Assembly: GCA_919902505.1 (NCBI GenBank)
Contig: CAKKRE010000028.1
Location: forward strand, 10,530 to 74,529
Direction of reading: 5' to 3'
DNA from: Nitrospiraceae bacterium
Lineage (GTDB): Bacteria > Nitrospirota > Nitrospiria > Nitrospirales > Nitrospiraceae
Length of the DNA: 64,000 nt
Of this stretch, positions 1,056 through 33,446 are shown piece by piece. Positions within the stretch are counted from its first letter, which is position 1; every line of letters begins with the position of its first letter. A model generated the notes under the pieces. The model was given only the letters and a program-made list of their open reading frames with translations. It was not told the origin of the DNA and searched no databases. Both the position numbers and the translations under genes were made by a program.

Positions 1056-3395
1056 CTAGACCCTTTCGGGGGCCAACTCCGTCCCGTGCATGCGGGTAAA
1101 CAATTCCCAGTCGAACGGTTTGGGCGCGACGGCATGTAGAGGAATCGTTTCGAGCCGGTTGGAATCGTGATACGCCACCATGCACCCGACGATCGTGTCC
1201 GGTTGTTCGACGAGCCGACGGACGGTTTCGTATGCGAGATGTTGCGCGATCATTTTATCTTCCGGCGTCGGGGGAGCACCTCTGAGCGTATGCCCCAGGA
1301 TCGTCGCCTTCGTGGCCGTGGCCAATGCATAATGACCGGACGTCTCTCGACGTGGCGGCCAGGTTGCGATGGTGTTGGCCACATAATCCACCAGCCCATG
1401 GACGCCGCCTTCTTTGTGATGCCGGTGCGGGGTCCGTTCCGCCACGATAAAGATGTGGCTCTTGTTGGGCACCCCCAAGGTACGCTTCAACGTGCCCAGG
1501 ACAATCTCCTCAATGTAGGCATCCGGGTCGGGGTGTTCGTTCACGAGGATCCCTTCCGCTCGGGCCTGATACGCGCAGGCCAGGGCCAGGTGGCCCGACC
1601 CGGCGCCCATGACTTCTACGAAAAAGATGCTGCCCATGGCCGCGCTGGTCGCCTTGAGGGATTCAATGGATTGATTCGCCAGCGCGATGGCCGAATGAAA
1701 GCCCAGTGAGGTCGTGCCGGCGATGTTGTTGTCGATGGTGCCGGGAATGCCGACGACCTGCACCCCGTAGGTCTCGTGAATCGCCCGGGCGCCGCGCAGG
1801 CTGCCGTCGCCTCCCAGCACTACGAGCGCCGAGTCTGCGAGATAGGGCGCAAGGGACCGCATGGCGGCCCGTTGGACCTCCTCGTCTTTGAAATCTTCGA
1901 AACGGCTGCTGCCGATGGGGCTACTGGCATGGCTGCCCATGCCGCGTGTGTCTTCTTCCGTGACGGGATCGATCCAGTTGTTTGCCAGCCCCAGAAAGCC
2001 GTGCCGGACGAACAAGACCTCCAAGCCGAAGCGGTTCCCGGTCACGCGCAATTCTTTCAACGCCGCCCCGCCGCCGCCGAAATCACCGCCCGACACGAGA
2101 GCCAGGAGGCGCTTGATGCGTTGGGGCTTGAGTGTGACGCGTTGGCTCCGCTCCCGCTCGACCGTGACCCAGGCTTCGCGGGCGACCCGTTCGCTTTCAA
2201 TCAGGCCGACGGCCGTGGAGTAGCCGGACAGTTTGCCGTTCTCCAGCGTGAGGAGGACGACATTGTCCTGTCCCTCCTTGTATTCGCCGAATTCGGAAAA
2301 CGCTTCGCGGAACGGACGCGGGTCCAGATAGATCCGCAACGCGCGCAGAGTCGAACTGTGGGTATAGAGGCAGAGCACTTCTCCGGGGTGGGCACGGCCC
2401 AGCCGGTGCAGGCCGTCGATCACATCGATATAGAGGTCGAAGAACGAATGCCCGCCCGGATAACTATAGAAGGGATGTTTGATGAGCCGCTTGGCGGTTT
2501 TCGCATCGACACCGAAGGCCTGCGCCGCCGAGTCGATCTCCGCCTGCTTTTCCATACCGGTGACCCAGCCGAAATCCTGTGACTCCAACGTGGCCTCGAC
2601 ATGGGGATGGACGGCATCGGCCCGATCGGGAGTCAGTGCTTTCGTGATACGCCGGCAGAGTTGTTCCGTGTTCGGACTGTGGCTGATGAGGTGAAGGAAC
2701 GTGCGCGGATCCAGATAGTTGCGCAACTGCAGATAGCCCAGTTGTTGTCCGACGACGCCCACCATGCGAGCCAGCGCCGTGCCGACGGCCTCTGCCCTGG
2801 GTATCCCGCGTTCGGCATCCAGGACATTGGCCAGCCGCCGGCCCACTCGATGGGTCTTGCTCTCCACTTCCGAGACGCCATGGCGCATCGTGAGAAACAG
2901 CGTGCGGTCGCCGAGGTCGCGGGGAAGCAGCCAGAACCGGTCATCACCCAGATCCAGCACAATGCGGCCCTCGGCCAACTGTGGGGTCAACTGAGCGCGC
3001 GGCACGATGGCGACCGGGCGGCGATGCGCAGGCTTCTGCGTGGCGCCGATCGGGGATCGATACAACGGGGCGAGTTCTCCGCGCGCGAGCAGCAGATTCC
3101 ATGCGGCGAAGAAGACCAGCGGGTCGCCTCCGCAGGCGTCGGTTATGACTGCCTGGCGTGCGGTGCGATAGGCCTCGGCGCTGGGCAGACCGGCCTGCGT
3201 CTGCTGGATGAAGGTTCTGATCCGGCCGGTCGCCTCCTCGGCGCGCGGTAGCCGGTCGGAAGCAGGCGGGGGGGAAGGCGGCAGCACGAACCTGTCGCTC
3301 GATGTGCGTTGCGCGAGGGCCTCACCGTAGGCCAGTAAGCCTTGCATCGTGACAAAGTCCAACTGTTCGGTTGACTGACTGTCCGAAGCGCGCAT
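1056..3395 (-). CDS. pfkA: Fusion of a histidine-phosphatase (PGM-like) domain and a divergent PfkA-family 6-phosphofructokinase domain
   Basis: N-terminal half has MRHG, QDFGW, PGGHSF and YTHSSTLRAL; C-terminal half has SGGD, GSSRF, GGDGS, PGTIDNN, VEVMG and GHTLRG. Confidence 0.85.
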   Translation of the reverse strand: MRASDSQSTEQLDFVTMQGLLAYGEALAQRTSSDRFVLPPSPPPASDRLPRAEEATGRIRTFIQQTQAGLPSAEAYRTARQAVITDACGGDPLVFFAAWNLLLARGELAPLYRSPIGATQKPAHRRPVAIVPRAQLTPQLAEGRIVLDLGDDRFWLLPRDLGDRTLFLTMRHGVSEVESKTHRVGRRLANVLDAERGIPRAEAVGTALARMVGVVGQQLGYLQLRNYLDPRTFLHLISHSPNTEQLCRRITKALTPDRADAVHPHVEATLESQDFGWVTGMEKQAEIDSAAQAFGVDAKTAKRLIKHPFYSYPGGHSFFDLYIDVIDGLHRLGRAHPGEVLCLYTHSSTLRALRIYLDPRPFREAFSEFGEYKEGQDNVVLLTLENGKLSGYSTAVGLIESERVAREAWVTVERERSQRVTLKPQRIKRLLALVSGGDFGGGGAALKELRVTGNRFGLEVLFVRHGFLGLANNWIDPVTEEDTRGMGSHASSPIGSSRFEDFKDEEVQRAAMRSLAPYLADSALVVLGGDGSLRGARAIHETYGVQVVGIPGTIDNNIAGTTSLGFHSAIALANQSIESLKATSAAMGSIFFVEVMGAGSGHLALACAYQARAEGILVNEHPDPDAYIEEIVLGTLKRTLGVPNKSHIFIVAERTPHRHHKEGGVHGLVDYVANTIATWPPRRETSGHYALATATKATILGHTLRGAPPTPEDKMIAQHLAYETVRRLVEQPDTIVGCMVAYHDSNRLETIPLHAVAPKPFDWELFTRMHGTELAPERV

Positions 3396-3581
3396 GCGTG
3401 GCCTCGTGTGCTGGTTCGTGAGTGCGGTCTAATCGAAAAGTATCTGGATGTTCTTTTGCGGCATGGTGACGGGTTTGTTAGAATGACTCGTTGCCGACCT
3501 AATCACGGATGCATCGAGCCTCACCGTTCACGTACAAGATGGTGTGCCGGGCCGATCTTGTCAAGACAGAAGAACAGCGCC

Positions 3582-5033
3582 ATGCGAAAAGCGAAAATCG
3601 TCTGCACCATCGGTCCGGCGAGCGATGGCGCCGTCGTGCTCGACCAGCTCATTCGAAGCGGCATGGATGCGGCCCGTTTGAATTTTTCCCATGGCACGCA
3701 CGACTCGCATGGGCGGGCGATCAAGACGATTCGCGACACGGCCGATCGTCACGGGGTGGCGATTGCGATCATTCAGGATCTGCAAGGGCCGCGCATTCGC
3801 GTCGGCGAAATCGACGGCGCGCTGGAGCTCATCGCCGGTCAGCGCGTTCGACTGAGGACGATGTCCTTACGATCCGGCGGGCAGATCGGTGCCAGGACGG
3901 TGATCGCCGCGGGTACGGTGCAGGATATCCCCGTCACCTATCAGGCACTGACCAGGGACATTCGGCCCGGGGCCAAAATACTGATCGACGATGGACTGGT
4001 GGAATTGACGGCGGATCGAATCGTCGATGGTGCGGTAGAGTGTACCGTGGTGGCAGGCGGACGTGTGACGTCTCATAAGGGGATGAATCTGCCCGGCACG
4101 GTCGTGAGCGCTCCGACCCTGACGGAGAAAGACCGGGAAGATGTGCGGTTCGGCGTGGCGCAGGGCGTGGACTATATCGCATTATCCTTTGTCCGTGGAG
4201 CGCAGGACATCATGGCCGCCAAGGAATTGATTGCCGAATGCGGCGGCGACGTGCCGGTGATCGCCAAGATCGAGCGGCAGGAGGCCGTCACGGACTTGGA
4301 GGCCATTCTCGTTCACGCCGACGGGGTCATGGTGGCGCGGGGCGACTTGGGCGTCGAGTTGGGGCCGGAAGCCGTGCCGGTGCTGCAGAAGCGCATCATC
4401 GCGACGGCGAATCGCCAACGACGGCTGGTGATCACCGCGACGCAGATGCTCGAGTCCATGACGCAACATCTGCGGCCGACCAGGGCGGAAGCGTCGGATG
4501 TGGCCAATGCCGTGTTCGATGGCACCGATGCCGTGATGCTCTCCGCCGAAACGGCCGTCGGACAGTACCCGGTGGAAGTCGTGCAGGTGATGGATCGGAT
4601 CATACGGGCGGCCGAAGTCGAAACAGGGCCCTGTTTTGTCCGTCGCTCGCAGGGCGAGCAGGGGCAGGATTCCATTCCGGAAGCCATCTCGCTCTCGGCC
4701 TACTCGGCTGCCGCGACGATCGGTGCGAGTGCGATCGTGGCCTTCAGTGAACGGGGAACGACGGCCCGGCTGGTTTCCAAGCAACGCCCGGTCGCGCCGA
4801 TCATCGGATTGACGCCGTTCGAGACGGTCCGCCGGCAGATGGCCTTGTATTGGGGGGTGCTTCCCCACACCGTGCCACAGATTCCGACGACCGATGAGCG
4901 GGTCAACGAAGCTGAGCGGCGCTTGAAGGCTGAAGGACTGGCACGGAGCGGGCAACGCATCGTCATTCTGTCCGGGACCAGAATCGGGCAACCGGGCGGG
5001 ACGAATCTGATGAAATTGCATGAGGTGGCCTAG
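3582..5033 (+). CDS. pyk: Pyruvate kinase
   Basis: MRKAKIVCTIGP, ARLNFSHG, DLQGP, AKIER, MVARGDLG, TQMLESM, PTRAEASDVANAVFDGTDAVMLS; start moved from 3408 to 3582. Confidence 0.97.
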   Translation: MRKAKIVCTIGPASDGAVVLDQLIRSGMDAARLNFSHGTHDSHGRAIKTIRDTADRHGVAIAIIQDLQGPRIRVGEIDGALELIAGQRVRLRTMSLRSGGQIGARTVIAAGTVQDIPVTYQALTRDIRPGAKILIDDGLVELTADRIVDGAVECTVVAGGRVTSHKGMNLPGTVVSAPTLTEKDREDVRFGVAQGVDYIALSFVRGAQDIMAAKELIAECGGDVPVIAKIERQEAVTDLEAILVHADGVMVARGDLGVELGPEAVPVLQKRIIATANRQRRLVITATQMLESMTQHLRPTRAEASDVANAVFDGTDAVMLSAETAVGQYPVEVVQVMDRIIRAAEVETGPCFVRRSQGEQGQDSIPEAISLSAYSAAATIGASAIVAFSERGTTARLVSKQRPVAPIIGLTPFETVRRQMALYWGVLPHTVPQIPTTDERVNEAERRLKAEGLARSGQRIVILSGTRIGQPGGTNLMKLHEVA

Positions 5034-5037
5034 TCGC

Positions 5038-5601
5038 ATGGACATTCCACGGCACAGTGTAATTATCACGTTCATCGCGGCGGTGCTTCTGCTGTCGGCC
5101 TCTGCGATTCCGGGCTTGGCTCAAACCAATGCCGTCTCGCATTCTCCGGCGAAGGTGGTGGAGAAATACTTCGCGCTCGACAACAAGGGGGTGCGGCTCG
5201 ATGCCGGTTCCTTCGAGGCGGTGGCGGGCCTCGTGGATTGGAAGGAAGAGCCGGCCTGGGGCAAAGTCATCGTCATCAACGGCTTCACGGTGCCGGACGA
5301 TTTTCGCCAGTGGGAGATTGTGAACAGGCTGGAGGTGTTGGTGCCGGTGGAGTTTCATGTGTTGGGCGTCATGTATCTGGATACGGCCGGGTTTGTGCCG
5401 GAACCGGGCACGGAGCAGGTGCGTGTCCGCGTGAAGGTGCAGGGGGCACGATGGAAAATCATGGAGCCCATTCTCCCGCCCCATGTCGGCCAGAAGCGGA
5501 TGCTGAATGTGGTCCGGCAGGCCATGCTGGACGAGAAGGACGGAGTGCGCCACGAGTCGTTGGCGGCCTTGCAGGCCGAGTTGCGAAAGGCAAAAGAATG
5601 A
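5038..5601 (+). CDS. Exported hypothetical protein
   Basis: Signal peptide (VIITFIAAVLLLSASA); 4 nt after the pyk stop; stop overlaps the next start (ATGA). Confidence 0.75.
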   Translation: MDIPRHSVIITFIAAVLLLSASAIPGLAQTNAVSHSPAKVVEKYFALDNKGVRLDAGSFEAVAGLVDWKEEPAWGKVIVINGFTVPDDFRQWEIVNRLEVLVPVEFHVLGVMYLDTAGFVPEPGTEQVRVRVKVQGARWKIMEPILPPHVGQKRMLNVVRQAMLDEKDGVRHESLAALQAELRKAKE

Positions 5602-6248
5602 CGAAAAAGGCTGAGATCGATTTGCTCATTTTCGACCTCGACGGCACGTTGATCGAGTCGAAATGGGATATCGCCGACAGCGTCAATCTGACGTTGCGCG
5701 ATCTGGGTGTGCCGGAGCGCCCGCAGGAGGAAATTTTCGGATTCGTCGGCGACGGTGTGAAGAAGCTCTTGCGGCTGGCGGTCGGCGAAGGCAACAAGGA
5801 CTTGTACGATGAAGCGCTCCGGGTCTTTCGCGGACATTATCTGGAACATTGCCTGGATCGCACCTCGTTTTATCCGGGGATCGACCGGGTCCTCGCCCAT
5901 TTCTCCGCCATGCCCAAGGCCGTGGCGACCAATAAGGCGATCGAATATACCCACGTGATTTTGAAGGGCCTCGGCTCGCAACATTTTGTCTATGTGGTCG
6001 GCGGCGACAACGGGTTCGGTCTCAAGCCCGAGCCCGGTATGCTGGTGCATGTGATGGAACAACTCGGCGTCGAGAAGGACCGCACGGTGCTGGTCGGCGA
6101 CAGCACCAACGACATCAACGGCGGTCACAATGCAGGCATCCGGGTCTGTGCGGTGGGCTATGGCATGGGCAACCGTCAGAAGATGGCCGCCTGCCAGCCC
6201 GATTGGTTTATTGAACGACCGGAGGAACTGATGGAGCTTTTCCTATGA
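5598..6248 (+). CDS. HAD-family hydrolase, phosphoglycolate phosphatase-like
   Basis: FDLDGTL motif I, ATNK, KPEP and VGDSTND motifs; start re-chosen at the ATGA overlap. Confidence 0.9.
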   Translation: MTKKAEIDLLIFDLDGTLIESKWDIADSVNLTLRDLGVPERPQEEIFGFVGDGVKKLLRLAVGEGNKDLYDEALRVFRGHYLEHCLDRTSFYPGIDRVLAHFSAMPKAVATNKAIEYTHVILKGLGSQHFVYVVGGDNGFGLKPEPGMLVHVMEQLGVEKDRTVLVGDSTNDINGGHNAGIRVCAVGYGMGNRQKMAACQPDWFIERPEELMELFL

Positions 6249-13189: not shown

Positions 13190-13253
13190 TAGGTCAGCAG
13201 CGGAATAGTCGCATCCTTTAAATATGAGCGGATCGGAATAGGAATGTGAAGTT

Positions 13254-13442
13254 ATGGAACCGACGGATCATCCTTGTGAGCGGTGTGCTCGAACCGACGG
13301 GCGGCTCATTTTCGACCAGTGGAGCAAACTGCTGCTCTGCGAAAATTGCTTCGAGCGCATGAGGCGGCAGCAGGCATGGTCTCTTCTGCGTGAGGCTGAG
13401 ATGCCTGAGGGGACAAGCTGGGTCATCCCCAGGCATGAATGA
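13254..13442 (+). CDS. Small Cys4 zinc-finger protein (copy 1)
   Basis: CERC-x17-CENC; paralog immediately downstream. Confidence 0.65.
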   Translation: MEPTDHPCERCARTDGRLIFDQWSKLLLCENCFERMRRQQAWSLLREAEMPEGTSWVIPRHE

Positions 13443-13454
13443 ACTAAGGAGGGA

Positions 13455-13649
13455 ATGAAAGTGGAGGAGTCTTCTGTGATCTCGAAAGATCGACAATCCG
13501 CCGCGATCATGCATTGCGAGCGCTGTGCCAGGCGCTCTGTCCAACTATGCTTCGACGACACCAGCCGGCAAGAGAGCTGCTCCGAATGCCTGAATCGTTT
13601 GACCACGCGAAGAGGATTTATCACCAGGCCGGCGAAGCCAAGGCAGTAA
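13455..13649 (+). CDS. Small Cys4 zinc-finger protein (copy 2)
   Basis: CERC-x17-CSEC; AAGGAGG RBS before the ATG; shares CERCAR and LxFD with copy 1. Confidence 0.65.
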   Translation: MKVEESSVISKDRQSAAIMHCERCARRSVQLCFDDTSRQESCSECLNRLTTRRGFITRPAKPRQ

Positions 13650-13756
13650 GGATCCCCCATGGCTCGCTCCTCTCTCCTGCTCGCGACGGGGCTGTCCCTC
13701 ATCACGCCGGACCTGTGCGGCGCGATCCGGGACGGCGTGCTCCCTGAGAGACTCTT

Positions 13757-15436
13757 ATGCCCGGTCGCTATTTAGAACTGAAGCCGGTTCGCAGCACCCT
13801 GTGGGGGGAGGTTTCCCGGCTTGCGCTGGTGATCGGCCTCGAACAGCGCGTCCTCATGCTTATCGTCTCCTACGCCTTGGCCATCGCTCTCTTCTCCCTG
13901 GTCGTTCCCCTGACCGTGCAGGAACTCGTCAGCACCTTTGCCTTTTCGATCGAGCCGGTCATGATTGTCACCCTCACGCTGATCATTCTGATCGGACTCC
14001 TCTTCATCGGTTTCTTCCGGGTCTTTCAGACGAGCGCGACGGAAATACTCTTTCAGCGGCTCTACACCCGTATTGCTATCGCCATGACGGAGCACCTGCC
14101 CCGGGTACGGGAAGAAGTGTTCGTGCCCAGCTACGCGAACTACTTTGGAGAAGCGGAATTATTGCCGCGCGCCGTGGTGGTCGTGCTGGTGGACCTGATC
14201 AATGTTTTCATCTCAGGTGCTACGGGGCTGGTGATTCTCGTCGTCTATCATCCGTATTTCCTTGTGTACGACGCCTTCCTGCTCGGTGGATTTGCGCTGG
14301 TGCAATTCACCTCCGGGCAAGGAGGGGTTCGAGCGACGCAGACGGTCTCACAACACCATTACGATCTCATGACCTGGATGCAGGATATCGCGCAGAATCG
14401 CCTTCATTTCAAGGCCACCCAGAGCGCCCCGTTACTGCTGAATAAAACCGACCGCTTGTTGGAGTCTTACCTTACGGCGCGAAGGGCTCGCTCAGGGGTA
14501 CTGACCTGGCGCCAGTACATCAGCACGGTGATCTGGGAGGCGATTTGCCATAGCGGCATGATCGGCATGGGCGGATGGCTGCTGTCGATCGGGCAGATCA
14601 CGCTCGGTCAGTTCGTCGCGGCCGAAGTCATCGTCGGCACGCTCCTTCTGAACCTCGATACGGTGACGCGTCGAATCTATGCCGTGACCTATATCGTGAC
14701 GTCTTTCGATGAGCTGACGCGGGTCTTCTCTCTTCCGAAAGATGATCTGAGGGAGGAGGCGTCATTCTCGCGGTTGCCCGATCCCGCCATCCACGGTCTT
14801 CATGTGACCTGCAAAGATGCGGGCTTTGCCTATCCCAACTCCCCACCGATCATTGAGGGATTCAATTTGGAGGTGGCTTCCGGGGAAAAGGTGGCGGTCA
14901 TTTCTCAAACCAGCACGGGCAAATCCACCCTCGCTCTCTTGCTGGCCGGTCTCTCTCGCCCGACCACCGGGGTGGTTCGATTCAACGATGTGGATTTGCG
15001 CGATATGACCATGGACGATATCAATGCCGCTCGAGCGCTGGTTCTCGATTCGCATCTGACGTTGTTCGGAGGGACGCTGGAGGAAAATATCTCACTCGGA
15101 CGGCCGTCGGTCCGGTTCGAAGACCTCCGCTGGGCGCTGAGGTTCGCGGAATTAGATGAGGACGCCGATAGATTGCCGCAGGGCCTGGAAACTCCGACTC
15201 TGGCAGGGGGGAAGCTCTTCACGAAGAGTCAGATTCTTCGCATTCTGGTCGCCCGCGCGATCGTCACGAGGCCGCAATTGCTCATCTTCGACGGGACGCT
15301 CCATAACATGGCGCCGGATCTGAGGCAGATTCTGCTGCGGCGACTCTGTTCAAAAGAGGAAGCGTGGTCGGTGATCTTCGTCACCAATGACCCTTCCATC
15401 GGAGAATATGTCGATCGCCGTGTCATGCTGGGGTGA
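13757..15436 (+). CDS. ABC exporter-type half transporter (TMD+NBD) with degenerate ATPase motifs
   Basis: Multi-TM N-terminal half with GQITLGQFVAAE; Walker A SQTSTGKST, signature FTKSQ, Walker B LLIFDG. Confidence 0.85.
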   Translation: MPGRYLELKPVRSTLWGEVSRLALVIGLEQRVLMLIVSYALAIALFSLVVPLTVQELVSTFAFSIEPVMIVTLTLIILIGLLFIGFFRVFQTSATEILFQRLYTRIAIAMTEHLPRVREEVFVPSYANYFGEAELLPRAVVVVLVDLINVFISGATGLVILVVYHPYFLVYDAFLLGGFALVQFTSGQGGVRATQTVSQHHYDLMTWMQDIAQNRLHFKATQSAPLLLNKTDRLLESYLTARRARSGVLTWRQYISTVIWEAICHSGMIGMGGWLLSIGQITLGQFVAAEVIVGTLLLNLDTVTRRIYAVTYIVTSFDELTRVFSLPKDDLREEASFSRLPDPAIHGLHVTCKDAGFAYPNSPPIIEGFNLEVASGEKVAVISQTSTGKSTLALLLAGLSRPTTGVVRFNDVDLRDMTMDDINAARALVLDSHLTLFGGTLEENISLGRPSVRFEDLRWALRFAELDEDADRLPQGLETPTLAGGKLFTKSQILRILVARAIVTRPQLLIFDGTLHNMAPDLRQILLRRLCSKEEAWSVIFVTNDPSIGEYVDRRVMLG

Positions 15437-15545
15437 GTGTAGGCGGGCGTTGGATGTGTCCCGGCACACAGAGCGTTCGGCTATACAGCCTCAGTCCTGC
15501 GTGGTAGCATGAAACCCTGCTCGAATCTTCCTGTAGGACGCAGGT

Positions 15546-16943
15546 ATGTTTAGACCTATTTCTGAAGCCGCTCTCCTCCGAAGGGCTCCCTATCGGTTGA
15601 TCGCGGCGGTGCTGTTGATTTTGGCCTTGGTCGTTTCCGTCATCCTGCTCTTCAGTTTGGAACAGGAGAAACTTCTCCTTCAGGGCGTTATTCAAGGCAA
15701 GACGGCTCCGACGGAGTTGTTTCCAGCGCTCTGGCAGTCGCGCCGCGACTTGACGCTGGTGGCGCTCCTCGTTTTTCTGGTGAGTGCGATCGGGATCACC
15801 GCGGTCATCACGTTTCTGCACTATGACAGCACCATACGAACCCTCGAAGAAGTGAAGGGGCTGGCGCGCAACATCCTCGAGAGCATTCCAACCGGTGTCC
15901 TGACGCTGAACCGCAGCGGCATGATTACGGCCGTCAATCCCTCGGCTGAGGCCGTGTTGAAACGTGCGTCGCTCGACTTGCTGGGCCACTCGTACGAATC
16001 CGTCTTTACGGAGGGCGATACCATCCGCGGGGCGCTTGATGCAGCGCTGCGGATCCATCGGCACATGAGTCAGAAAGACTTGCCCTATGAAAGCCGCGAT
16101 CGAACCCTGCACACCATCCGCGTCAGTACGGCCGAGTTGACCGGAGACGATGGACGGCCCGCCGGCGTCATTCTCCAGGCACAGGACGTCACGGAATGGC
16201 TGGCTCTTGAACGGAGAGTCCGGGTTGCGGAAAAACTGGCGGCTCTTCACACGCTATCCGCCGGGGTGGCGCACGAGTTGCGCAATCCGTTGAGCGCGAT
16301 CGATTTGAATTTGCATCTCCTTGAGGAAGAATTCAACGAGCAGGGGGGGGCGGCGAAGCAGGCCGCTCATTACCTCCGCGTGTTGAATGCCGAATGCCGC
16401 CGCCTGTCGGTGATTCTCGATAACTTCATGAAGTTCGCGCGACCCGGCTCCCTGGGTCTCCATGCGGTGGATTTGCCCGCCTTGATCGAACACATCGTGG
16501 CGCTCATGCGGTTCGAAGCGGAGGAGCGTAAGATTCAACTTGAGCCACGGGTGAGCAAGGACATGTCCCCGGTGCTGGGTGATGAGACGCAAATCAGCCA
16601 GGTCTTGGTGAACATCGTCGTCAACGCGTTCCATGCCATGCCGAATGGTGGGCGGTGCTGTATCGCTACGGAAGAACGCCCGGGGGAAGGGAAGCGCTGG
16701 GTAGAGATTGTCGTGAGCGACACGGGTATCGGTATTGAACAGGAAGACCTGCCGCGACTGTTTGAGCCCTTCTATACGACCAAGTCGGGTGGAACCGGGC
16801 TCGGCCTCGCGATCGCCTACCGGATTATGCAGGATCATGGCGGGACCATTCATGTGACAAGTGTGCCTGGAAACGGGACCCAGGTGGTCATGCAATTTCC
16901 TGTTGCTGTCGATCATCAGCAGGCGGTTGCGGTGGGATTATGA
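15546..16943 (+). CDS. Sensor histidine kinase (2 TM, PAS, HisKA, HATPase)
   Basis: H-box AHELRNPL, N-box NIVVNAFHAM, DTGIG, FEPFYTTK, GTGLGL; PAS starting at NILESIPTGV. Confidence 0.95.
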   Translation: MFRPISEAALLRRAPYRLIAAVLLILALVVSVILLFSLEQEKLLLQGVIQGKTAPTELFPALWQSRRDLTLVALLVFLVSAIGITAVITFLHYDSTIRTLEEVKGLARNILESIPTGVLTLNRSGMITAVNPSAEAVLKRASLDLLGHSYESVFTEGDTIRGALDAALRIHRHMSQKDLPYESRDRTLHTIRVSTAELTGDDGRPAGVILQAQDVTEWLALERRVRVAEKLAALHTLSAGVAHELRNPLSAIDLNLHLLEEEFNEQGGAAKQAAHYLRVLNAECRRLSVILDNFMKFARPGSLGLHAVDLPALIEHIVALMRFEAEERKIQLEPRVSKDMSPVLGDETQISQVLVNIVVNAFHAMPNGGRCCIATEERPGEGKRWVEIVVSDTGIGIEQEDLPRLFEPFYTTKSGGTGLGLAIAYRIMQDHGGTIHVTSVPGNGTQVVMQFPVAVDHQQAVAVGL

Positions 16944-18298
16944 CGCAAGGGGCGCATATTCTCGTCGTAGACGATGAGGTCAATATCCGGGGCGCGTTAG
17001 TGACGCTCCTTGAAAAGAAAGGCCACCATGTGCGCGGGGCAGGGACAGGAGAAGAAGCGCTGGAGGAGCTTGATGCCGCCGCGGCTGATCTGGTGATGAC
17101 CGACCTCAAGATGCCCGGGATCGGCGGAATGGAGTTCCTTCGTCGTCTGAAGGAGAAGTGGCCGGAGACGGAAGTCGTGGTCATGACGGCGTATGGATCG
17201 ATCGATACGGCAGTGGAGGCCATGCGATGCGGCGCGTACGACTATCTCACCAAACCCATCGATCGCGAGCGGTTTCCCATCGTGGTCGAGAAAGCGCTGG
17301 ATCGCCATGCGCTGGCGACGGAGAACAAACAGCTCAGGAGCCGCCTGGACACACGCACACGCTTCGATCAGATGGTCGGTGACAGCGAGCCGATGCGGCA
17401 CGTTTACAACATGGTTGAGATGGTGGCCGAGAGCGATGTCACGGTGTTACTGACGGGGGAAAGCGGTACCGGAAAGGAACTTGTCGCCCGGGCGATCCAT
17501 CATAGGAGTGCCCGGGCGAATGGACCGTTTGTCACGCTGAACTGCGGAGCGTTACCAGAGAACCTGTTTGAAAGTGAACTGTTCGGCTACGACAAAGGGG
17601 CGTTTACCGGAGCGATGACCACGAAGCTGGGGCGATTCGAACTCGCCCATGAGGGAACGCTGCTTCTGGATGAAGTCGGCGAACTATCGTTAAAATCGCA
17701 GGTGGATTTCCTTCGTGTCTTGGAGACGAAGGAATTCAGACGCCTGGGCGGAACCAAAGTGATCAAGGTTGATACCAGGATCATTGCCGCCACGAATCGC
17801 AATCTCGAAGCAGCCGTCAAGCAGGGTGACTTTCGCGAAGACCTCTACTATCGATTGAACGTCGTCCCGATCCACCTCCCGCCGCTGCGCGAGCGTGCGG
17901 AAGATATCCCGCTGCTCGTGAACCGGTTTCTGATCGCCTTCTCGACCCAGTATCGCCGCGAGCCAAAGGAGGTGTCACGCGACGCCATGCGGTTGCTCCG
18001 CCTCTATGCCTGGCCCGGGAATATTCGCCAGCTCCGAAATCTCATGGAGCGGCTGGTGGTGACCGTGAAGGATGCAACCATTCAATCGGAACACCTCCCC
18101 GGGGACATTCAGGCCAGCAAGGAGGATGCTCGCACGATGCTCGTGACGCTGGGGACGCCCCTGGAACAGATCGAACGGGATGTCATCCAACGGACATTGG
18201 CCGAAGTGACGAATCATCGAGAGAAAGCGGCCAAACTCCTCGGCATCAGCCTCCGTGCATTGCAGTATAAAATCAAGGAGTACGGCATCCGCGAATAA
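16940..18298 (+). CDS. Sigma-54-dependent response regulator (NtrC/AtoC family)
   Basis: REC domain (VVDDE, TDLKMP), GESGTGKE, ELFG..GAFTGA, C-terminal Fis-type HTH; 4-nt overlap with the kinase. Confidence 0.96.
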   Translation: MTQGAHILVVDDEVNIRGALVTLLEKKGHHVRGAGTGEEALEELDAAAADLVMTDLKMPGIGGMEFLRRLKEKWPETEVVVMTAYGSIDTAVEAMRCGAYDYLTKPIDRERFPIVVEKALDRHALATENKQLRSRLDTRTRFDQMVGDSEPMRHVYNMVEMVAESDVTVLLTGESGTGKELVARAIHHRSARANGPFVTLNCGALPENLFESELFGYDKGAFTGAMTTKLGRFELAHEGTLLLDEVGELSLKSQVDFLRVLETKEFRRLGGTKVIKVDTRIIAATNRNLEAAVKQGDFREDLYYRLNVVPIHLPPLRERAEDIPLLVNRFLIAFSTQYRREPKEVSRDAMRLLRLYAWPGNIRQLRNLMERLVVTVKDATIQSEHLPGDIQASKEDARTMLVTLGTPLEQIERDVIQRTLAEVTNHREKAAKLLGISLRALQYKIKEYGIRE

Positions 18299-23745: not shown

Positions 23746-24371
23746 AGCGGGAGTGAGAGGGTGTGAAGCGCCTAATACTATCTCGTGGAGCAGGATTGCT
23801 GATAAGCGATGCGTGTGTGGTGTAGGCGAGGATCTCGAGAGAGGGAGCTTGTCAAAACCAGAAACTGCGAATCGCCAGATCGATGGGTTAGCCATTCTGC
23901 TGCATTGAGCTTCCTCCATGCCGTCATTACACTGACCTTTTCTCCAGCGTCTGCATGCGGCTGAATCTGACATCTGAAATGTTGCCGGAACTGGCCCATC
24001 TAACGGTCGGAATCCTCGCCTTGTATCATCCAATCGGTAGTCTCTTGCAGGCCTATACCGGCAAGGCGATTGTGCCACTGGTGCCGTCCCCTTTTCCGTC
24101 ATGAAAAGAGCATGAGGGGGCCGGTTCGATTGGAGCCGGCATGGTCCCACGGGGGAACCTGAGTTTGCATGAAATGGTTGCATGGGTTCTGCTCTATGTC
24201 CGTTGTGCACGGTCGCTTTTCGGATAGCAGTTGATGTGTCACACCGTATGTTTTAAGGTTCCTGGAGGCTGTCAAGATTCTCCGGTTCACATCTCGAAGA
24301 CCAGGGGGGAGTGATAGAATGCATTCTGTGTCTGGTTGTGGAGGGGCCTCCTTGAGGTTCTTGCTGCAACG

Positions 24372-26399
24372 ATGACCGTTCTACTCGTCGGCCTACTGGC
24401 GATCTACATAGCCGGCGTCATCCTTCCTCCATGTTTTCCTGGGAAAGCGAGGATTCAGAACCTCGTCGCACATGGGCTTGCGGCGGCGGCAGGTTTCGTC
24501 GGTATCGTCCTCGGTGTTGCGGGCCTCCTCTCAACGGCGCCTCTGACCCTCTCGCTTGCTTCCAACATTCCCCATCTCAGCTTCGCAATCCGTCTGGACC
24601 CGCTGGCGGCGTTCTTCGTGCTGACTATCTCGCTGGTGGGGCTGGCCGCGTCGATCTATGCGTCCGGCTACGTCGTCGAATTCTCGGGCCGAGTATCGGT
24701 GGGATTGTTGGGCTCCCTCCTCAACGGGTTTTTGCTCTCCATGACCCTGGTGGTCCTGGCCGACAACGGGTTCTTCTTCCTGATCCTCTGGGAAGTCATG
24801 TCCCTGTTGTCCTATGTGCTGGTTGTGACGGAGCATGAGAAGCCCGGCGTCCGGGAGGCGGGGTTGTTCTATCTCATCATGACGCACGTCGGTACCGCGT
24901 TCATCATCCTCACGTTTTTGATCTTTTTCCAGGAAACCGGCTCATTTTCCTTCGAGGCGTTTCGCCACCCCGACCAGCAGCTTCCTGAGGGATTGCGATC
25001 GATCGCGTTTTTCACGGCCTTGATCGGATTCGGCGCGAAGGCCGGCATCGTTCCACTGCACGTGTGGCTCCCCTATGCGCATCCCGCCGCCCCGTCCCAC
25101 ATCTCGGCCCTAATGTCGGGGGTCATGATCAAGACCGCCATCTACGGGTTGATCCGGATGTACTTCGATTTCATGGGCGGGGAATTCCCCTGGTGGTGGG
25201 GCTTCACGTTGTTGGTCGCCGGCACGGTGTCGGCGCTCCTGGGTGTCATGTACGCCTTGATGGAACATGACCTGAAGAGCCTGCTCGCCTTTCACAGTGT
25301 GGAAAACATCGGCATCATTCTGCTGGGGATCGGCGCAGGCATGATCTTCCACACCTATGGCTTGCATGAACTGGCGGCGCTCGGATTACTGGCGGGCCTG
25401 TACCATACCATCAACCACGCGGCGTTTAAGGCGTTGCTGTTTCTGGGCGCCGGGGCGCTGCAGTTCTCCACCCATACGAGACACATCGAGGAGTACGGCG
25501 GCTTGCTCCGGCGCATGCCCTGGACGGGCGCCTTTTTTCTGATCGGCGCCGTCTCCATCGCCGCGCTTCCGCCCACCAATGGGTTCGTCAGTGAGTGGCT
25601 GGTCTTTCAGAGTTTGTTTCTCAGCTTCCAGCTGCCCACTCTGTTTCTCAAGTTGATGTTGCCGATTGCCGCCGCGATGTTGGCGTTGACGGGCGCGCTG
25701 GCGCTGGCGTGTTTTGCGAAGGCGTTCGGGATGTCGTTTCTGGCGCAGCCGCGCAGCGTCCATGCCCGCCATGCGACGGAAGTCCCCTGGTCGATGCGGG
25801 TTGGGATGGGCTTCTTGGCAGGGCTCTGCATGGTGCTGGGGCTGGCGCCCATGCTGGTCGTTCCGTTGTTGGATCGGGTCACGACTCCATTGACCGGTGC
25901 GGCCATCAGTTCACAGGTGCTGGCGCTCGACGGCTGGGTGGTGGCGCCGGTGACGGTGGAGTTTTCGAGCATCTCGACGCCGGTGCTCGCCATGCTCCTG
26001 GTCGGGGCGGGAGCGTTGGGGCTGCTGATCGCCCGACTCTGCGGGAAGGGGCTGCGCGCGCGCTATTACAAGACCTGGGGTTGCGGGCTGAATCTGACGC
26101 CTCGCATGGAATACACCGCGACCGGCTTCGCGCAACCGGTCAAGCAGGTCTTTGAAACCATCTACCAGCCGACGGTGAAGCTGGAGCAGGAGTTTCTGGA
26201 GCAATCGAAGTACTTCATCAAGCATCAGCGGTTCGAGTCGCACATCGAGCCGGTCTTCGAGAAGTACCTCTACCGGCCGGTGGTGGCATGGCTGTTGGCG
26301 GCAGCCGACCGGCTGCGCATCATTCAGGCCGGCAGTCTCCATCTGTATCTCACCTACATTTTTGTGACGCTGGTGCTGTTGTTGTTATGGGCGGGGTAG
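24372..26399 (+). CDS. hyfB: Hydrogenase-4 component B-like antiporter subunit (Ehr complex)
   Basis: Many TM helices; WEVMS, KAGIVPLHVWLPYAHPAAP, ENIGII, GGLLRRMP; alternative start at 24336. Confidence 0.9.
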   Translation: MTVLLVGLLAIYIAGVILPPCFPGKARIQNLVAHGLAAAAGFVGIVLGVAGLLSTAPLTLSLASNIPHLSFAIRLDPLAAFFVLTISLVGLAASIYASGYVVEFSGRVSVGLLGSLLNGFLLSMTLVVLADNGFFFLILWEVMSLLSYVLVVTEHEKPGVREAGLFYLIMTHVGTAFIILTFLIFFQETGSFSFEAFRHPDQQLPEGLRSIAFFTALIGFGAKAGIVPLHVWLPYAHPAAPSHISALMSGVMIKTAIYGLIRMYFDFMGGEFPWWWGFTLLVAGTVSALLGVMYALMEHDLKSLLAFHSVENIGIILLGIGAGMIFHTYGLHELAALGLLAGLYHTINHAAFKALLFLGAGALQFSTHTRHIEEYGGLLRRMPWTGAFFLIGAVSIAALPPTNGFVSEWLVFQSLFLSFQLPTLFLKLMLPIAAAMLALTGALALACFAKAFGMSFLAQPRSVHARHATEVPWSMRVGMGFLAGLCMVLGLAPMLVVPLLDRVTTPLTGAAISSQVLALDGWVVAPVTVEFSSISTPVLAMLLVGAGALGLLIARLCGKGLRARYYKTWGCGLNLTPRMEYTATGFAQPVKQVFETIYQPTVKLEQEFLEQSKYFIKHQRFESHIEPVFEKYLYRPVVAWLLAAADRLRIIQAGSLHLYLTYIFVTLVLLLLWAG

Positions 26400-26463
26400 G
26401 GCGAGGCAGCGGGCTGTGCGTAGGGGTTGTGCCTGGTCGTTCGATCACTGAGTGACGGGAGCT

Positions 26464-27420
26464 ATGCAGTCGATCATCCACATCGTGCTGGTCGTCGTTC
26501 AGCTTGCGCTGTTGTTGACCCTCTCTCCGTTTGTCGTCGGCCTCATCCGAAAGGTCAAAGCACGTCTACAGTGCCGCCGCGGGGCGAGTCTCTTTCAGCC
26601 CTACGCCGATCTGGCCAAGTTGTTCCGGAAGCAGCCCGTCATCTCTTCGACGACCTCCTGGATTTTTACCGCGGCGCCATACATTGTCTTTGCCTCGACC
26701 GTTGCGGCGGGACTGCTGATACCGGTGTTCGTCTCTCACACCCCGCTCAATTTCGCGGGGAACATCATTGCGCTCGTCTATCTGCTGGCGTTGGGAACGT
26801 TCTTCCTGATCCTGGCGGGGCTCGATGCAGGATCGGCGTTCGGGGGGATGGGCAGCAGCCGCGAGGCGATCGTCGCGACGCTGGCCGAGCCGGCCATGAT
26901 GCTGTCCATCCTTTCTATCGCGCTGACCGCCGGCTCCACGAATTTGAGCACCATCGTGCATCAGTCCGCGTTGATGGAAGGGGTCGTCGTGGCTCCGCCC
27001 GCCCATTTGATGGCGCTGGCCGCCTTGTTCATCGTGACGCTGGCGGAAACCGGTCGTGTCCCGGTGGACAATCCCGCCACGCACCTGGAATTGACGATGA
27101 TCCACGAGGCCATGCTGCTCGAGTATTCCGGCCGCTACCTGGCGTTGATGGAGTGGGCGGCCGGCATCAAGTTGCTGGTGTTCCTGACCTTGATCGTGAA
27201 TGTCTTTGCGCCCTGGGGTATCGCCACGAGCCTGGCGCCGTCAGCCATCGCCGTCGGTCTTCTGGTGTATCTCGGGAAAGTGGCTGCGCTGGCTTTTGTG
27301 ATCGGCGTGATCGAATCGATGTTCGCGAAGCTGCGATTGTTCCGGGTGCCGGAAATGCTGGGCGCGGCGTTCATCCTGTCGCTGCTCGCGCTGGTCTTCT
27401 TCTATACGCTGAAAGGGTAA
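26464..27420 (+). CDS. hyfC: HyfC/NuoH-like membrane subunit
   Basis: RKVKARLQCRRG..QPYADLAKL, GSSRE, ETGRVPVD, EYSG. Confidence 0.9.
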   Translation: MQSIIHIVLVVVQLALLLTLSPFVVGLIRKVKARLQCRRGASLFQPYADLAKLFRKQPVISSTTSWIFTAAPYIVFASTVAAGLLIPVFVSHTPLNFAGNIIALVYLLALGTFFLILAGLDAGSAFGGMGSSREAIVATLAEPAMMLSILSIALTAGSTNLSTIVHQSALMEGVVVAPPAHLMALAALFIVTLAETGRVPVDNPATHLELTMIHEAMLLEYSGRYLALMEWAAGIKLLVFLTLIVNVFAPWGIATSLAPSAIAVGLLVYLGKVAALAFVIGVIESMFAKLRLFRVPEMLGAAFILSLLALVFFYTLKG

Positions 27421-27424
27421 CGCG

Positions 27425-28090
27425 GTGTCGGCTTCCACCCAATTGGGCTCACAACTCGTCGATCTCTGCTCGGTCCTGCTGCTGCTCTGTTGTTTTGCCA
27501 TCGTGGCGCAGCGTCGATTGTCGGCCTGTGTGGATCTCTTTGCGCTGCAGTCCGCGTTTCTGGCGGCGACCGCCGCGCTCGTCGCGTTTCTGACCGGACA
27601 TAAGCACATTTATTTCGCGGCGGCCCTGACGATCGTCATCAAAGTGATCGTGCTGCCACGCATTCTGCGGAAGGTCATCGAGCGTCTGAATGTCTCCCGT
27701 GAGCTGGGGATGAATATCAATATTCCGGCGGGCCTGCTGATCTGCGGCGCGCTGGTGATCGTCGCCTTCTTTATCACGCAGCCCATCATTCCGCTCGGCT
27801 ACCTGCTGACGCGCGATTCTCTGGCCATTGCGCTGGCCATTATTTTGATCGGATTTTTCACCATGATCGCCCGCCAGAAGGCGATCACGCAGATGGTCGG
27901 CTTCCTGGTCATGGAGAACGGAGTGTTCCTGGGAGCCACGGCGGCCGCGTACGGCATGCCGCTGATCGTTGAATTGGGCGTCTTCTTCGATGTGTTGGTG
28001 GCCGGGTTGATCGTCGGCATTTACACGCATCGGCTGCAGGATACGTTCGATAGCGTGGACACCAGCACGCTGACGGTGCTGAAGGAATGA
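27425..28090 (+). CDS. hyfE: HyfE-like membrane subunit
   Basis: GFLVMENG, PLIVELGVFFD; position in the operon. Confidence 0.88.
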   Translation: MSASTQLGSQLVDLCSVLLLLCCFAIVAQRRLSACVDLFALQSAFLAATAALVAFLTGHKHIYFAAALTIVIKVIVLPRILRKVIERLNVSRELGMNINIPAGLLICGALVIVAFFITQPIIPLGYLLTRDSLAIALAIILIGFFTMIARQKAITQMVGFLVMENGVFLGATAAAYGMPLIVELGVFFDVLVAGLIVGIYTHRLQDTFDSVDTSTLTVLKE

Positions 28091-28127
28091 GGCGGTCGAT
28101 GACGCATGTCCGGCGAGTAGGTGCTGT

Positions 28128-29660
28128 ATGTGGTCGGTGATCGTCCTGCTGACAGGGCCGGTACTTGCCGGTCTGCTCAGTCTGGTGATCCACCGCGCCC
28201 GGGTCCTGCACGTCGTCAACTTTTCGACGATGCTGGCGTTGGCCGTTGCCGAGACGGCGCTGACGAGGCAGGTGCTGGCCGAGGGATCGGTGACGACATT
28301 GGGCGGCTTTGTCTACGTGGACGCGCTCTCGGACTTTATTCTGGTGATCATCACGGCCATCGGCCTGTCCTGTTCCCTCTACATGTGGTCCTACATGGAC
28401 GATCGGGTCGCCCGGGGCGTCATCGCGCCGAAGCGTCTCGGTCACTTCTTTTTTCTCTTCCATATGTTCCTGTTTGCGATGGTCGCCGCGACGATGGCGA
28501 ACAGTCTGGGCGTGCAGTGGGTGGCGCTGGAGGGGACCACCCTGGCGACGACCTTCTTGATCGCGTTTTTCCGCAGGCGGGAGTCCCTCGAAGCCGGTTG
28601 GAAATATCTGATCCTCTGTTCGGTGGGCATCGCCCTCGCGCTCTTCGGCGTGGTGCTCACCTATTACTCCTCTGTGCGGGTCCTTGGCGATGCGAGCTCG
28701 GCGCTCAATATGACCGCGCTGATCGGCGTGGCCAACCAATTGGACCCCAATGTGCTCAAGCTGGCGTTTATTTTCATGCTCGTCGGTTATGGCACGAAAG
28801 TGGGCCTGGTTCCCATGCATACCTGGTTGCCCGATGCTTACAGCGAAGCGCCGGCGCCGATTGCGGCGATGTTGGCCGGGGTGTTGGAAACGGTGGCGGT
28901 CTATACCGTGTTGCGCAGCAAGGCGCTGGTGGACCAGGCGCTTCCCCCGGAGTTCACCGGCAATCTGCTGCTCACCTTCGGGTTGCTCTCGTTCATCGTG
29001 GCCTCTCTGTTCATCCTGATTCAGCACAACTACAAGCGGCTGTTTGCCTATTCGAGTATCGAACATATGGGGCTGGCCATGATCGGTTTTGGAGTCGGCG
29101 GGATGATCGGCACCTTTGGCGGCCTCTTTCACCTGCTCAATCACGCCGTGGCCAAAGCGCTGGCCTTTTTCGTCGCGGGCAATATCCATCGGCGATTCGA
29201 CACCTTGGAAATCGACGGGGTGCGAGGGCTGGCGCGTGCGCAGCCGATTACCGCCGTGGCGATTCTCGTGGCGGGTTGCGCGTTGGTCGGCTTACCTCCC
29301 TTCTCGCCGTTCGTCAGTGAGTTGCTGATCGTGTCGGCGGTGGCCGCGCAAGACTTTTCATCCGATACGATGCATGTCGGACGGTTTGTGACAATGACGA
29401 TCTCGGATGAGATGCGCAGCCTCGGCATCGTCGCGCTGTTTCTATTTTTCGCCGTGGTGTTGTTCGGTGGGTTTATGTTTCGCGTCGGGGCCATGGTGTG
29501 GGGCACTCCCCCGGCCGGTATCGCCCAGGGAGAGTCGTGGACCGCCGGCCATGTGTCGCTGATGATCATGATCGTCGCGTTGTTGGGGCTTGGGTTCGTT
29601 CTTCCTGAGCCGATTCAGATGCTGCTCACCAGGGCCGTCAACGTGATTGTGGTGAGGTGA
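28128..29660 (+). CDS. hyfF: HyfF-like antiporter subunit
   Basis: WVALEGTTL, EAGWKY, GTKVGLVPMHTWLPDAYSEAP, KRLFAYSSIEH. Confidence 0.9.
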   Translation: MWSVIVLLTGPVLAGLLSLVIHRARVLHVVNFSTMLALAVAETALTRQVLAEGSVTTLGGFVYVDALSDFILVIITAIGLSCSLYMWSYMDDRVARGVIAPKRLGHFFFLFHMFLFAMVAATMANSLGVQWVALEGTTLATTFLIAFFRRRESLEAGWKYLILCSVGIALALFGVVLTYYSSVRVLGDASSALNMTALIGVANQLDPNVLKLAFIFMLVGYGTKVGLVPMHTWLPDAYSEAPAPIAAMLAGVLETVAVYTVLRSKALVDQALPPEFTGNLLLTFGLLSFIVASLFILIQHNYKRLFAYSSIEHMGLAMIGFGVGGMIGTFGGLFHLLNHAVAKALAFFVAGNIHRRFDTLEIDGVRGLARAQPITAVAILVAGCALVGLPPFSPFVSELLIVSAVAAQDFSSDTMHVGRFVTMTISDEMRSLGIVALFLFFAVVLFGGFMFRVGAMVWGTPPAGIAQGESWTAGHVSLMIMIVALLGLGFVLPEPIQMLLTRAVNVIVVR

Positions 29661-29664
29661 CCGT

Positions 29665-33347: not shown

Positions 33348-33446
33348 GAGAGACCAAGGTTCCGCGGCGGGCTTCGGTCTCACCTGCCTCGCTACGATGC
33401 GCAGAAAGCATCCGGGTCACAACCGAAATGAGGAGCGGTAGAAGCC

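Follow-up and report, generated by a model that had tools for sequence, protein, structure and literature searches.

A phosphofructokinase-family protein fused to a remodelled histidine-phosphatase-like module in nitrite-oxidizing Nitrospira and Nitrospina

In the window analyzed here, a 64,000-nucleotide stretch of contig CAKKRE010000028.1 from a Nitrospiraceae bacterium (assembly GCA_919902505.1), positions 1056-3395 of the minus strand form a single open reading frame (ORF) of 779 residues plus stop that encodes a three-domain protein of the phosphofructokinase (PFK) family. The chain starts with a helical domain, continues with a histidine-phosphatase-like domain that has been remodelled, and ends in a kinase of atypical PfkA type; the protein is labelled 6-phosphofructokinase in databases and genome papers. 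We describe its architecture, residue map, conservation, distribution and linkage to the pyruvate kinase gene pyk, and give about an even chance to the interpretation that it is an ATP-dependent fructose 6-phosphate (F6P) kinase for glycogen breakdown, in which the allostery of PfkA has been replaced by an N-terminal module for a phospho-ligand. A first-pass annotation of this DNA had proposed a histidine phosphatase and PfkA fused in one chain, and this fusion is borne out by Pfam PF00365, Foldseek, and hhalign. The architecture and all substitutions listed in that annotation are correct, whereas its functional interpretation is supported in part only; the R243K substitution, the loss of the effector site, the additional helical domain, the replacement of the catalytic Glu, the distribution outside Nitrospira, and the near-canonical motifs of Nitrospina go beyond it.

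The C-terminal domain belongs to the PFK superfamily (IPR035966). Residues 432-726 match Pfam PF00365 (E = 3.1e-57; 194.5 bits, cut-off 30.9), the top PDB match by sequence is E. coli PfkA (E = 1.5e-32), and a Foldseek search with the full-length AlphaFold model gave PFK matches only. Residues were mapped by aligning 120 full-length relatives (protein clusters) with E. coli PfkA in the literature numbering, where Met is residue 0, and species-level conservation was counted across a set of 70 full-length Nitrospirales genes drawn from species-representative genomes. The catalytic residues read by eye in the first-pass annotation, D127, H249, and R252, are indeed retained (D555, H702, and R705, respectively), as are D103 (D530), R72 (R498), G104 (G531), G124 (G552), and the equivalents of S105, G108, T125, M169, and E222. 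All these catalytic and ligand residues are invariant or nearly so over the 120 clusters and 70 species genomes, with either Thr or Ser at position 125. The invariant G531 and G552 correspond to Gly104 and Gly124 of ATP-type PFKs, whereas Asp and Lys occupy these positions in the pyrophosphate (PPi)-dependent enzymes; the earlier assignment to the ATP type rather than the PPi type fits this pattern. The Mg ligand Asp103 and the residue Asp127, both expected in an ATP-dependent PfkA, are likewise invariant, and Asp127 is the general base of PFK (PMC12203962). The retention of this base argues for a working kinase.

The other half of the residue map consists of changes. D129 is replaced by N557 (TIDNN in place of TIDND), R171 by A598 (MGA in place of MGR), R162 by S589, and R243 by K696, and the nucleotide loop, canonically GGDAPGMN, reads GGDFGGGG in this protein and GGDF[A/G]G[A/G]G, mostly GGDFAGAG, across its relatives. 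Each change that had been proposed earlier (D129N, R171A, Ser at position 162, and the loop) was recovered in the alignment with E. coli PfkA. Conservation of the substitutions in orthologs had been set beforehand as a check: D129N, R171A, R162S/T, and the altered nucleotide loop are fixed in 70/70 Nitrospirales genes and hold in 119-120 of the 120 protein clusters, R243K is likewise fixed in the 70 genes, and the TIDND and MGR motifs of the ATP-PfkA equivalog are absent from all 70 genes. The ligands of the F6P 6-phosphate, namely residues 162', 243', 249, and 252 (primes denote the neighboring subunit), are Ser, Lys, His, and Arg, respectively, so that two out of four are kept here, compared with four out of four in the Nitrospina clade described below. 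At the effector site, all basic residues are replaced (R21K, R25V, R54E, R154K, and K213N), and the Nitrospina fusion has K, D, E, E, and D at the same positions. In PfkA, Arg162' is an R-state ligand from the neighboring subunit, and its swap with residue 161 underlies the transition between the R and T states (PMC12203962). The Nitrospira PFK has thus lost the classical switch residue as well as the effector site.

Residues 1-425 form one unit in an AlphaFold model built from an alignment of Nitrospira and Nitrospina sequences, with a predicted local distance difference test (pLDDT) score of 90.7 and a predicted template modelling (pTM) score of 0.89. Searched against the PDB with Foldseek, this model matched branch-1 histidine phosphatases only (E = 6e-8, or about 1e-7; target-normalized TM-scores of 0.6-0.73), including GpgP, BPGM, PhoE, dPGM, TIGAR, FBPase-2, and a phosphoserine phosphatase. 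At the sequence level, the Pfam model His_Phos_1 (PF00300) covers only residues 262-362 of this protein and scores below threshold (19.8 bits, threshold 21.7), while its gathering score is exceeded in the relatives P0132 and P0205. An hhalign comparison of family residues 160-400 with five canonical enzymes gave a probability of 98.7% and E = 3.9e-15, with a register that is stable in global and local modes; the fragments of the PhoE reference agreed with the PDB profile match. The family profile also produced colinear PDB matches to PhoE and to the FBPase-2 domains of PFKFB at the RHG and YPGGES...TH segments, and marginal matches of P0205 to the PDB by sequence (E = 0.24) led to the register that was later confirmed by hhalign. 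A search of residues 1-425 against 1.84 billion representatives returned only 86 matches, almost all of which were partial copies of this very protein, and none was a canonical histidine phosphatase. The helical domain of approximately 115 residues is a bundle with the family-invariant residues G90, F95, W99, and N100 and the motif C-G-G-x3-F-x2-A-W-N; residues 1-125 had no match in Pfam, NCBIfam, or the top 50 PDB matches of Foldseek.

In the established register, R171/H172 correspond to R10/H11 of dPGM, K283 to K100, and H346 to H184, which places H172 at the position of the nucleophile. The RHG motif (residues 171-173) and the distal His (H346) that characterize the branch-1 superfamily are kept, in agreement with the first-pass annotation; R171 and H172 do not vary in any clade, H346 is invariant as well, and G173 is replaced by Ala in the relative P0192. 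The second Arg, which that annotation described as apparently lacking, is absent under either plausible register. The equivalent of dPGM R62 and FBPase-2 R307 is the invariant N242 (in the motif S-P-N-T; 70/70 Nitrospirales), and an alternative register shifted by two residues would assign the Arg role to position 244, which is Glu in this protein and variable in Nitrospirales (R in 33 genes, E in 28, S in 4, T in 3, and H in 1; 69 tallied of 70). R249 was considered as a compensating second Arg and rejected, as it is specific to Nitrospira and replaced by Ile or Val in Nitrospina. The catalytic Glu (dPGM E89 and FBPase-2 E327), located four residues ahead of a conserved Gly, is replaced by S272, which is invariant in cross-clade alignments and present in 68/70 Nitrospirales genes, with an acidic residue (E/D271; E271 in this protein) one position ahead of it. 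Altogether, R171, H172, S179, N242, T243, S272, T279, K283, and H346 are invariant among relatives that are 23-34% identical, including standalone versions. Because the replacement residues are themselves invariant at this level of divergence, the phosphatase-like pocket is remodelled and under selection rather than decaying. The equivalents of Arg62 and Glu89, two out of five canonical catalytic residues, are gone, and thus a fully competent phosphatase would not be the default expectation.

The fusion is widespread among Nitrospirales and extends beyond them. The counterpart in Ca. Nitrospira defluvii (FP929003.1) shows 95% identity over the N-terminal 425 residues and 97% over the full length (tblastn), which assigns the window to a lineage I Nitrospira. 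A genome scan with the single 779-residue sequence identified relatives in at least 266 species-level genomes, and the best 80 of these at least 266 relatives come from Nitrospiraceae/Nitrospirales, save a few probably mis-binned contigs. Nitrospira-type copies with 75-95% identity were found on contigs of metagenome-assembled genomes (MAGs) labelled Lysobacteraceae, Nitrosospira, and Deltaproteobacteria, which are probably binning or labelling errors. Using a profile of distant members, we identified a second clade of 780-800-residue fusions in Nitrospina and Nitrospinota, for instance in N. watsonii. A third fusion is encoded in a Ca. Desulfatibia MAG, and standalone N-terminal modules of 409-484 residues occur in metagenomes, one of which passes Pfam His_Phos_1 with E = 2.9e-9. 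The Nitrospina PFK half keeps GGD[SA]PGMN, TIDND, R162, R243, H249, and R252, and has in common with the Nitrospira half R171A/Y172G (YGAGSGH) and the loss of the effector site. Because the Nitrospina orthologs keep these canonical motifs, F6P is the most likely ancestral substrate. Identity between the two clades is 32-34% in the N-terminal half and 26-30% in the PFK half; this about equal divergence is consistent with a single old fusion and subsequent co-divergence or transfer. Apparent splits of the fusion were rejected: P0122, which resembled a natural separation of the N-terminal module from PFK, lies on a contig full of frameshifted genes and is an artefact, and on contig L085 (6001-8026) the fusion gene occurs in pieces of 468 and 201 residues next to sigma-70 r2/r4 genes that are also split, pointing to assembly frameshifts.

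The fusion gene is preceded by a ribosome-binding site, GAGG, 6 nt ahead of its ATG (3395), and has an even composition of approximately 60% GC. Metatranscriptome contigs from four independent studies cover both of its halves at a depth similar to that of pyk, with DNA carry-over possible in contig data. The divergent orientation of the gene relative to pyk, noted in the first-pass annotation, is confirmed. In Nitrospirales, pyk adjoins the fusion gene in 61 of the 64 loci with sufficient flanking sequence, either divergently (with a gap of approximately 210 bp) or in tandem with pyk downstream; this linkage resembles the pfkA-pyk operons of Firmicutes. As a universal feature, however, pyk adjacency was rejected, since it is absent in Nitrospina. 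The neighboring pyk passes its equivalog cut-off, unlike the fusion protein with the PFK models.

We propose that the fusion protein is the phosphofructokinase of nitrite oxidizers that use the reductive tricarboxylic acid (rTCA) cycle, where it would phosphorylate F6P at the committed step of glycogen breakdown and work together with the adjacent pyruvate kinase. F6P as the presumed substrate is favored by the near-canonical Nitrospina orthologs, by the adjacency of pyk, and by the assignment of glycogen catabolism to the Embden-Meyerhof-Parnas pathway in the Nitrospina genome paper, where this route is assumed. Classical control would have been lost through replacement of the basic residues of the ADP/phosphoenolpyruvate effector site in all clades and of the Arg162'/Arg243' inter-subunit phosphate clamp in Nitrospira, and it would have been taken over by the N-terminal module, in which the helical domain is packed on a putatively dPGM-derived histidine-phosphatase fold. 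With Arg-His...His and the Lys100 equivalent kept, and with Asn and Ser in place of the second Arg and Glu, the pocket of this module would most likely serve to bind some phosphorylated metabolite, or to hold a phospho-histidine, and its state would be passed on to the kinase; a low-turnover phosphatase activity is possible as well. Given the confident single-unit model, the invariant residues, and the equal divergence of both halves, the module is predicted to be functional, not decaying.

Several observations weigh against this proposal. All NCBIfam PFK models remain below their cut-offs by a wide margin (TIGR02482, 178.7 vs. 371.35 bits; PRK03202, 189.3 vs. 253 bits). R171A and D129N touch the phosphoryl-transfer site, and the altered nucleotide loop could alter the donor or the rate. 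In the full-length AlphaFold model, the PFK subdomain 554-710 has a pLDDT of approximately 30 and the inter-domain geometry is unusable. Moreover, the strictly kept nucleophilic His and its partner Arg fit an active enzyme better than a pure sensor, and the occurrence of standalone modules shows that the module has a role separate from PFK.

The last two points lead to the alternative that the protein is truly bifunctional, which we consider doubtful. Both domains would catalyze reactions on the same pair, either F6P and fructose 1,6-bisphosphate (FBP) or another sugar mono- and bisphosphate, so that flux direction or the level of a signaling bisphosphate would be governed by one polypeptide, as by PFK-2/FBPase-2 in eukaryotes but with a kinase of the PfkA fold. 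In favor of this possibility, R171/H172 and the distal H346 never vary across three phyla and the standalone homologs; Nitrospira, Nitrospina, P0192, and P0198 have an acidic residue 271 beside the position of the canonical Glu; FBPase-2 and TIGAR are among the fold and profile matches, with a common YPGGES motif; and glycogen-storing autotrophs need a strict switch between gluconeogenesis and glycolysis. However, the second Arg and Glu have become invariant Asn and Ser, position 244 as the sole alternative Arg varies freely in Nitrospirales, the Desulfatibia and P0205 members carry Asn at residue 271, and the sequence assigns no substrate. A more specific version, in which the C-terminal domain makes a sugar bisphosphate and the phosphatase domain destroys it via phospho-His172 as a PfkA-fold analogue of PFK-2/FBPase-2, is in our view unlikely. 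The 6PF2K P-loop kinase domain (PF01591) has no Pfam match in this protein, which instead carries the PF00365 kinase C-terminal to the phosphatase-like domain, and to our knowledge there is no evidence of fructose 2,6-bisphosphate in these bacteria. The likeness to PFK-2/FBPase-2 suggested by the first-pass annotation holds for the presence of a kinase and a phosphatase-type fold in one chain, and does not extend to the kinase fold, the domain order, or the two lost catalytic residues out of five. If true, such an analogue would represent the glycolysis/gluconeogenesis switch of rTCA-cycle nitrite oxidizers of the genera Nitrospira and Nitrospina.

It is quite improbable that the Nitrospira kinase has been re-targeted to another acceptor or donor, such as sedoheptulose 7-phosphate, tagatose 6-phosphate, or another sugar position, and is not a glycolytic PFK. 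Its changes do concentrate at the 6-phosphate clamp (R162S, R243K), the site of the transferred phosphate (R171A, D129N), and the nucleotide loop, the scores lie far under every PFK equivalog cut-off, and PFK-superfamily enzymes that also phosphorylate sedoheptulose 7-phosphate are documented; yet the same-subunit F6P ligands H249, R252, T125, M169, and E222 are kept, the Nitrospina orthologs are nearly canonical, and the pyk linkage is conserved. Least probable is the regulatory-pseudoenzyme option raised by the first-pass annotation. In this reading, the PFK domain would be non-catalytic and ligand-binding, like the C-terminal half of eukaryotic PFK-1, and the real activity would reside in the N-terminal module: D129N/R171A do have counterparts in the regulatory half of human PFKL (TISNN and MGG) and standalone modules exist, but D127 (Ser in the eukaryotic regulatory half), D103, G104, S105, R72, and most other residues in contact with ATP or F6P are invariant, and the Nitrospina clade keeps nearly all catalytic motifs.

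The features of the fusion gene and the adjoining pyk are listed in Table 1. The longest ORF of pyk begins at GTG 3408 (3408-5033, +), while pyruvate-kinase homology begins at Met 3582 (MRKAKIVCTIG), which is probably the true start. Downstream of pyk are a gene for a 193-residue protein without a family match (5020-5601) and a gene for an HAD-IA hydrolase (5601-6248, +) that resembles phosphoglycolate phosphatase and scores under all equivalog cut-offs (157 vs. 225 bits); the gene order is the same in N. defluvii. No other sugar-phosphate enzymes were found in the rest of the window. On the other side, the intergenic stretch from the 3' end of the fusion gene to a ribonuclease gene (792-1119) reaches a contig depth of 190-570 in four metatranscriptome runs, compared with approximately 20-60 for the flanking genes. 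Each run contains 9-12 contigs with common flanks and differing inserts of 24-35 nt that replace 900-992. This stretch contains a GC-rich inverted repeat (862-875/998-1011). It is conserved in the closest relatives only and has no Rfam or tRNA match, and the window does not hold another complete copy of it, the sole similarity being 35 nt at 83% (33362-33396); it could be an abundant small RNA, a 3' untranslated region, or a multi-copy element. The ribonuclease gene (314-775, -) encodes a 153-residue protein whose N-terminus resembles a signal peptide and which has a ribonuclease domain of barnase/RNase Sa type (PF00545, E = 1.6e-14); the adjoining 87-residue ORF (34-297, -) has no family match, and an inhibitor gene would be expected nearby. 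Further away, a complex-I/Mrp-like cluster (24336-31257, +) includes a Proton_antipo_M subunit (24336-26399) and a fused 30-kDa/49-kDa subunit of NuoC/NuoD type (29665-31257). In Nitrospina watsonii, the fusion gene lies approximately 3 kb upstream of genes for a 1153-residue molybdopterin protein and a Fer4_11 protein (13232-18090 of locus L081), which look like nxrA/nxrB.

Table 1. Coordinates of the fusion gene, its domains and key residues, and the adjoining pyk locus in the window.
Feature	Position	Strand	Evidence
Fusion gene ORF, 779 residues	1056..3395	-	Pfam, Shine-Dalgarno, RNA-derived contigs over both halves
N-terminal helical domain, ~residues 10-125	3021..3368	-	AlphaFold pLDDT >90; invariant columns
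Branch-1 (dPGM-like) histidine-phosphatase fold, residues ~128-400	2196..3014	-	Foldseek, hhalign, PDB profile matches
RHG motif R171-H172-G173	2877..2885	-	Alignment, hhalign register
N242 in S-P-N-T, at dPGM R62 position	2670..2672	-	hhalign; 70/70 Nitrospirales
S272, at dPGM E89 position	2580..2582	-	hhalign, cross-clade alignments
H346, distal His (dPGM H184), in T-H-S-S-T-L-R-A-L	2358..2360	-	Alignment, hhalign
PfkA-fold kinase domain, residues ~428-757	1125..2114	-	Pfam PF00365; PDB and Foldseek PFK matches
Nucleotide loop GGDFGGGG (canonical GGDAPGMN), residues 436-443	2067..2090	-	Alignment
TIDNN: base D555 (D127) retained, D129 to N557	1725..1739	-	Alignment
S589 (R162') to M-G-A598 (R171)	1602..1631	-	Alignment; inter-subunit F6P phosphate ligand and MGR arginine lost
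K696 (R243'); H702/R705 (H249/R252, retained)	1281..1310	-	Alignment
186-bp intergenic region common to fusion gene and divergent pyk	3396..3581	.	
Canonical pyruvate kinase pyk	3582..5033	+	TIGR01064, 527 bits vs. cut-off 306

A full-text literature search gave no description of a histidine-phosphatase/PFK fusion and nothing specific on a Nitrospira FBPase or PFK. The fusions listed in a 2025 review of the PFK superfamily are the eukaryotic duplication and the glyoxalase-like N-terminal domain of yeast only, with no mention of Nitrospira or of a histidine-phosphatase fusion (PMC12203962). The interest of the protein lies in its host organisms and in the conserved active-site remodelling of both domains. 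In wastewater plants, soils, and oceans, nitrite is oxidized mostly by Nitrospira and Nitrospina, which use the rTCA cycle for CO2 fixation, store glycogen, and have to keep glycolysis off during autotrophic growth. Metabolic reconstructions treat the fusion gene as an ordinary PFK, and some Nitrospira genomes are reported to lack PFK. Models of the switching between carbon fixation and the use of stores would need revision if control via the phosphatase-like module, or bifunctionality, proved true. For enzymology, the PFK superfamily would gain a domain fusion of a new kind, and the active site of histidine phosphatases a new and strongly conserved variant (R-H / N / S / K / H).

Compared with the PfkA enzymes of E. 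coli and G. stearothermophilus, the kinase domain is alike in its two-Rossmann fold, in the retained D127, D103, R72, T125, M169, E222, H249, and R252, in the ATP-type G104/G124, and in the link of its gene to pyk. It differs in D129N, R171A, R162S, R243K, the nucleotide loop, the replacement of all basic effector-site residues, and the NCBIfam scores below cut-off, and the chain has 779 residues, 425 of them extra at the N-terminus, compared with approximately 320 in PfkA. For the middle domain, the closest motif likeness is to dPGM and BPGM (HSSTLRAL.IYLD vs. HGNSLRALVKYLD), with equivalents of K100 and of R10/H11/H184; the differences are Asn for R62, Ser for E89, Glu for N17 (Asn in Nitrospina), an insertion of approximately 20 residues after the first helix, and the fusion to other domains. 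Eukaryotic PFK-1, with its duplicated C-terminal half and, in yeast, an N-terminal glyoxalase-I-like domain, likewise has an enzyme-derived domain fused to a PFK unit, and it provides a precedent for a former active site turned into an allosteric site for phospho-sugars; in the alignment, the D129N change and the loss of R171 in the Nitrospira domain are paralleled in its human PFKL regulatory half. In contrast to PFK-1, the fusion described here is bacterial, its add-on is a histidine-phosphatase fold with a helical domain without a known family, and the altered motifs are found in its sole PFK domain, which keeps Asp127. With PFKFB and TIGAR, the protein has in common the RHG motif, the YPGG(E)S motif, the distal His, and a predicted place at the decision point between glycolysis and gluconeogenesis; like PFKFB, it also joins a sugar-phosphate kinase to a histidine-phosphatase fold of branch 1 within a single chain. 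PFKFB, however, has a P-loop NTPase as its kinase, whereas the fusion has one of PfkA fold in reversed domain order, with Asn and Ser at the R307 and E327 equivalents and an extra helical domain.

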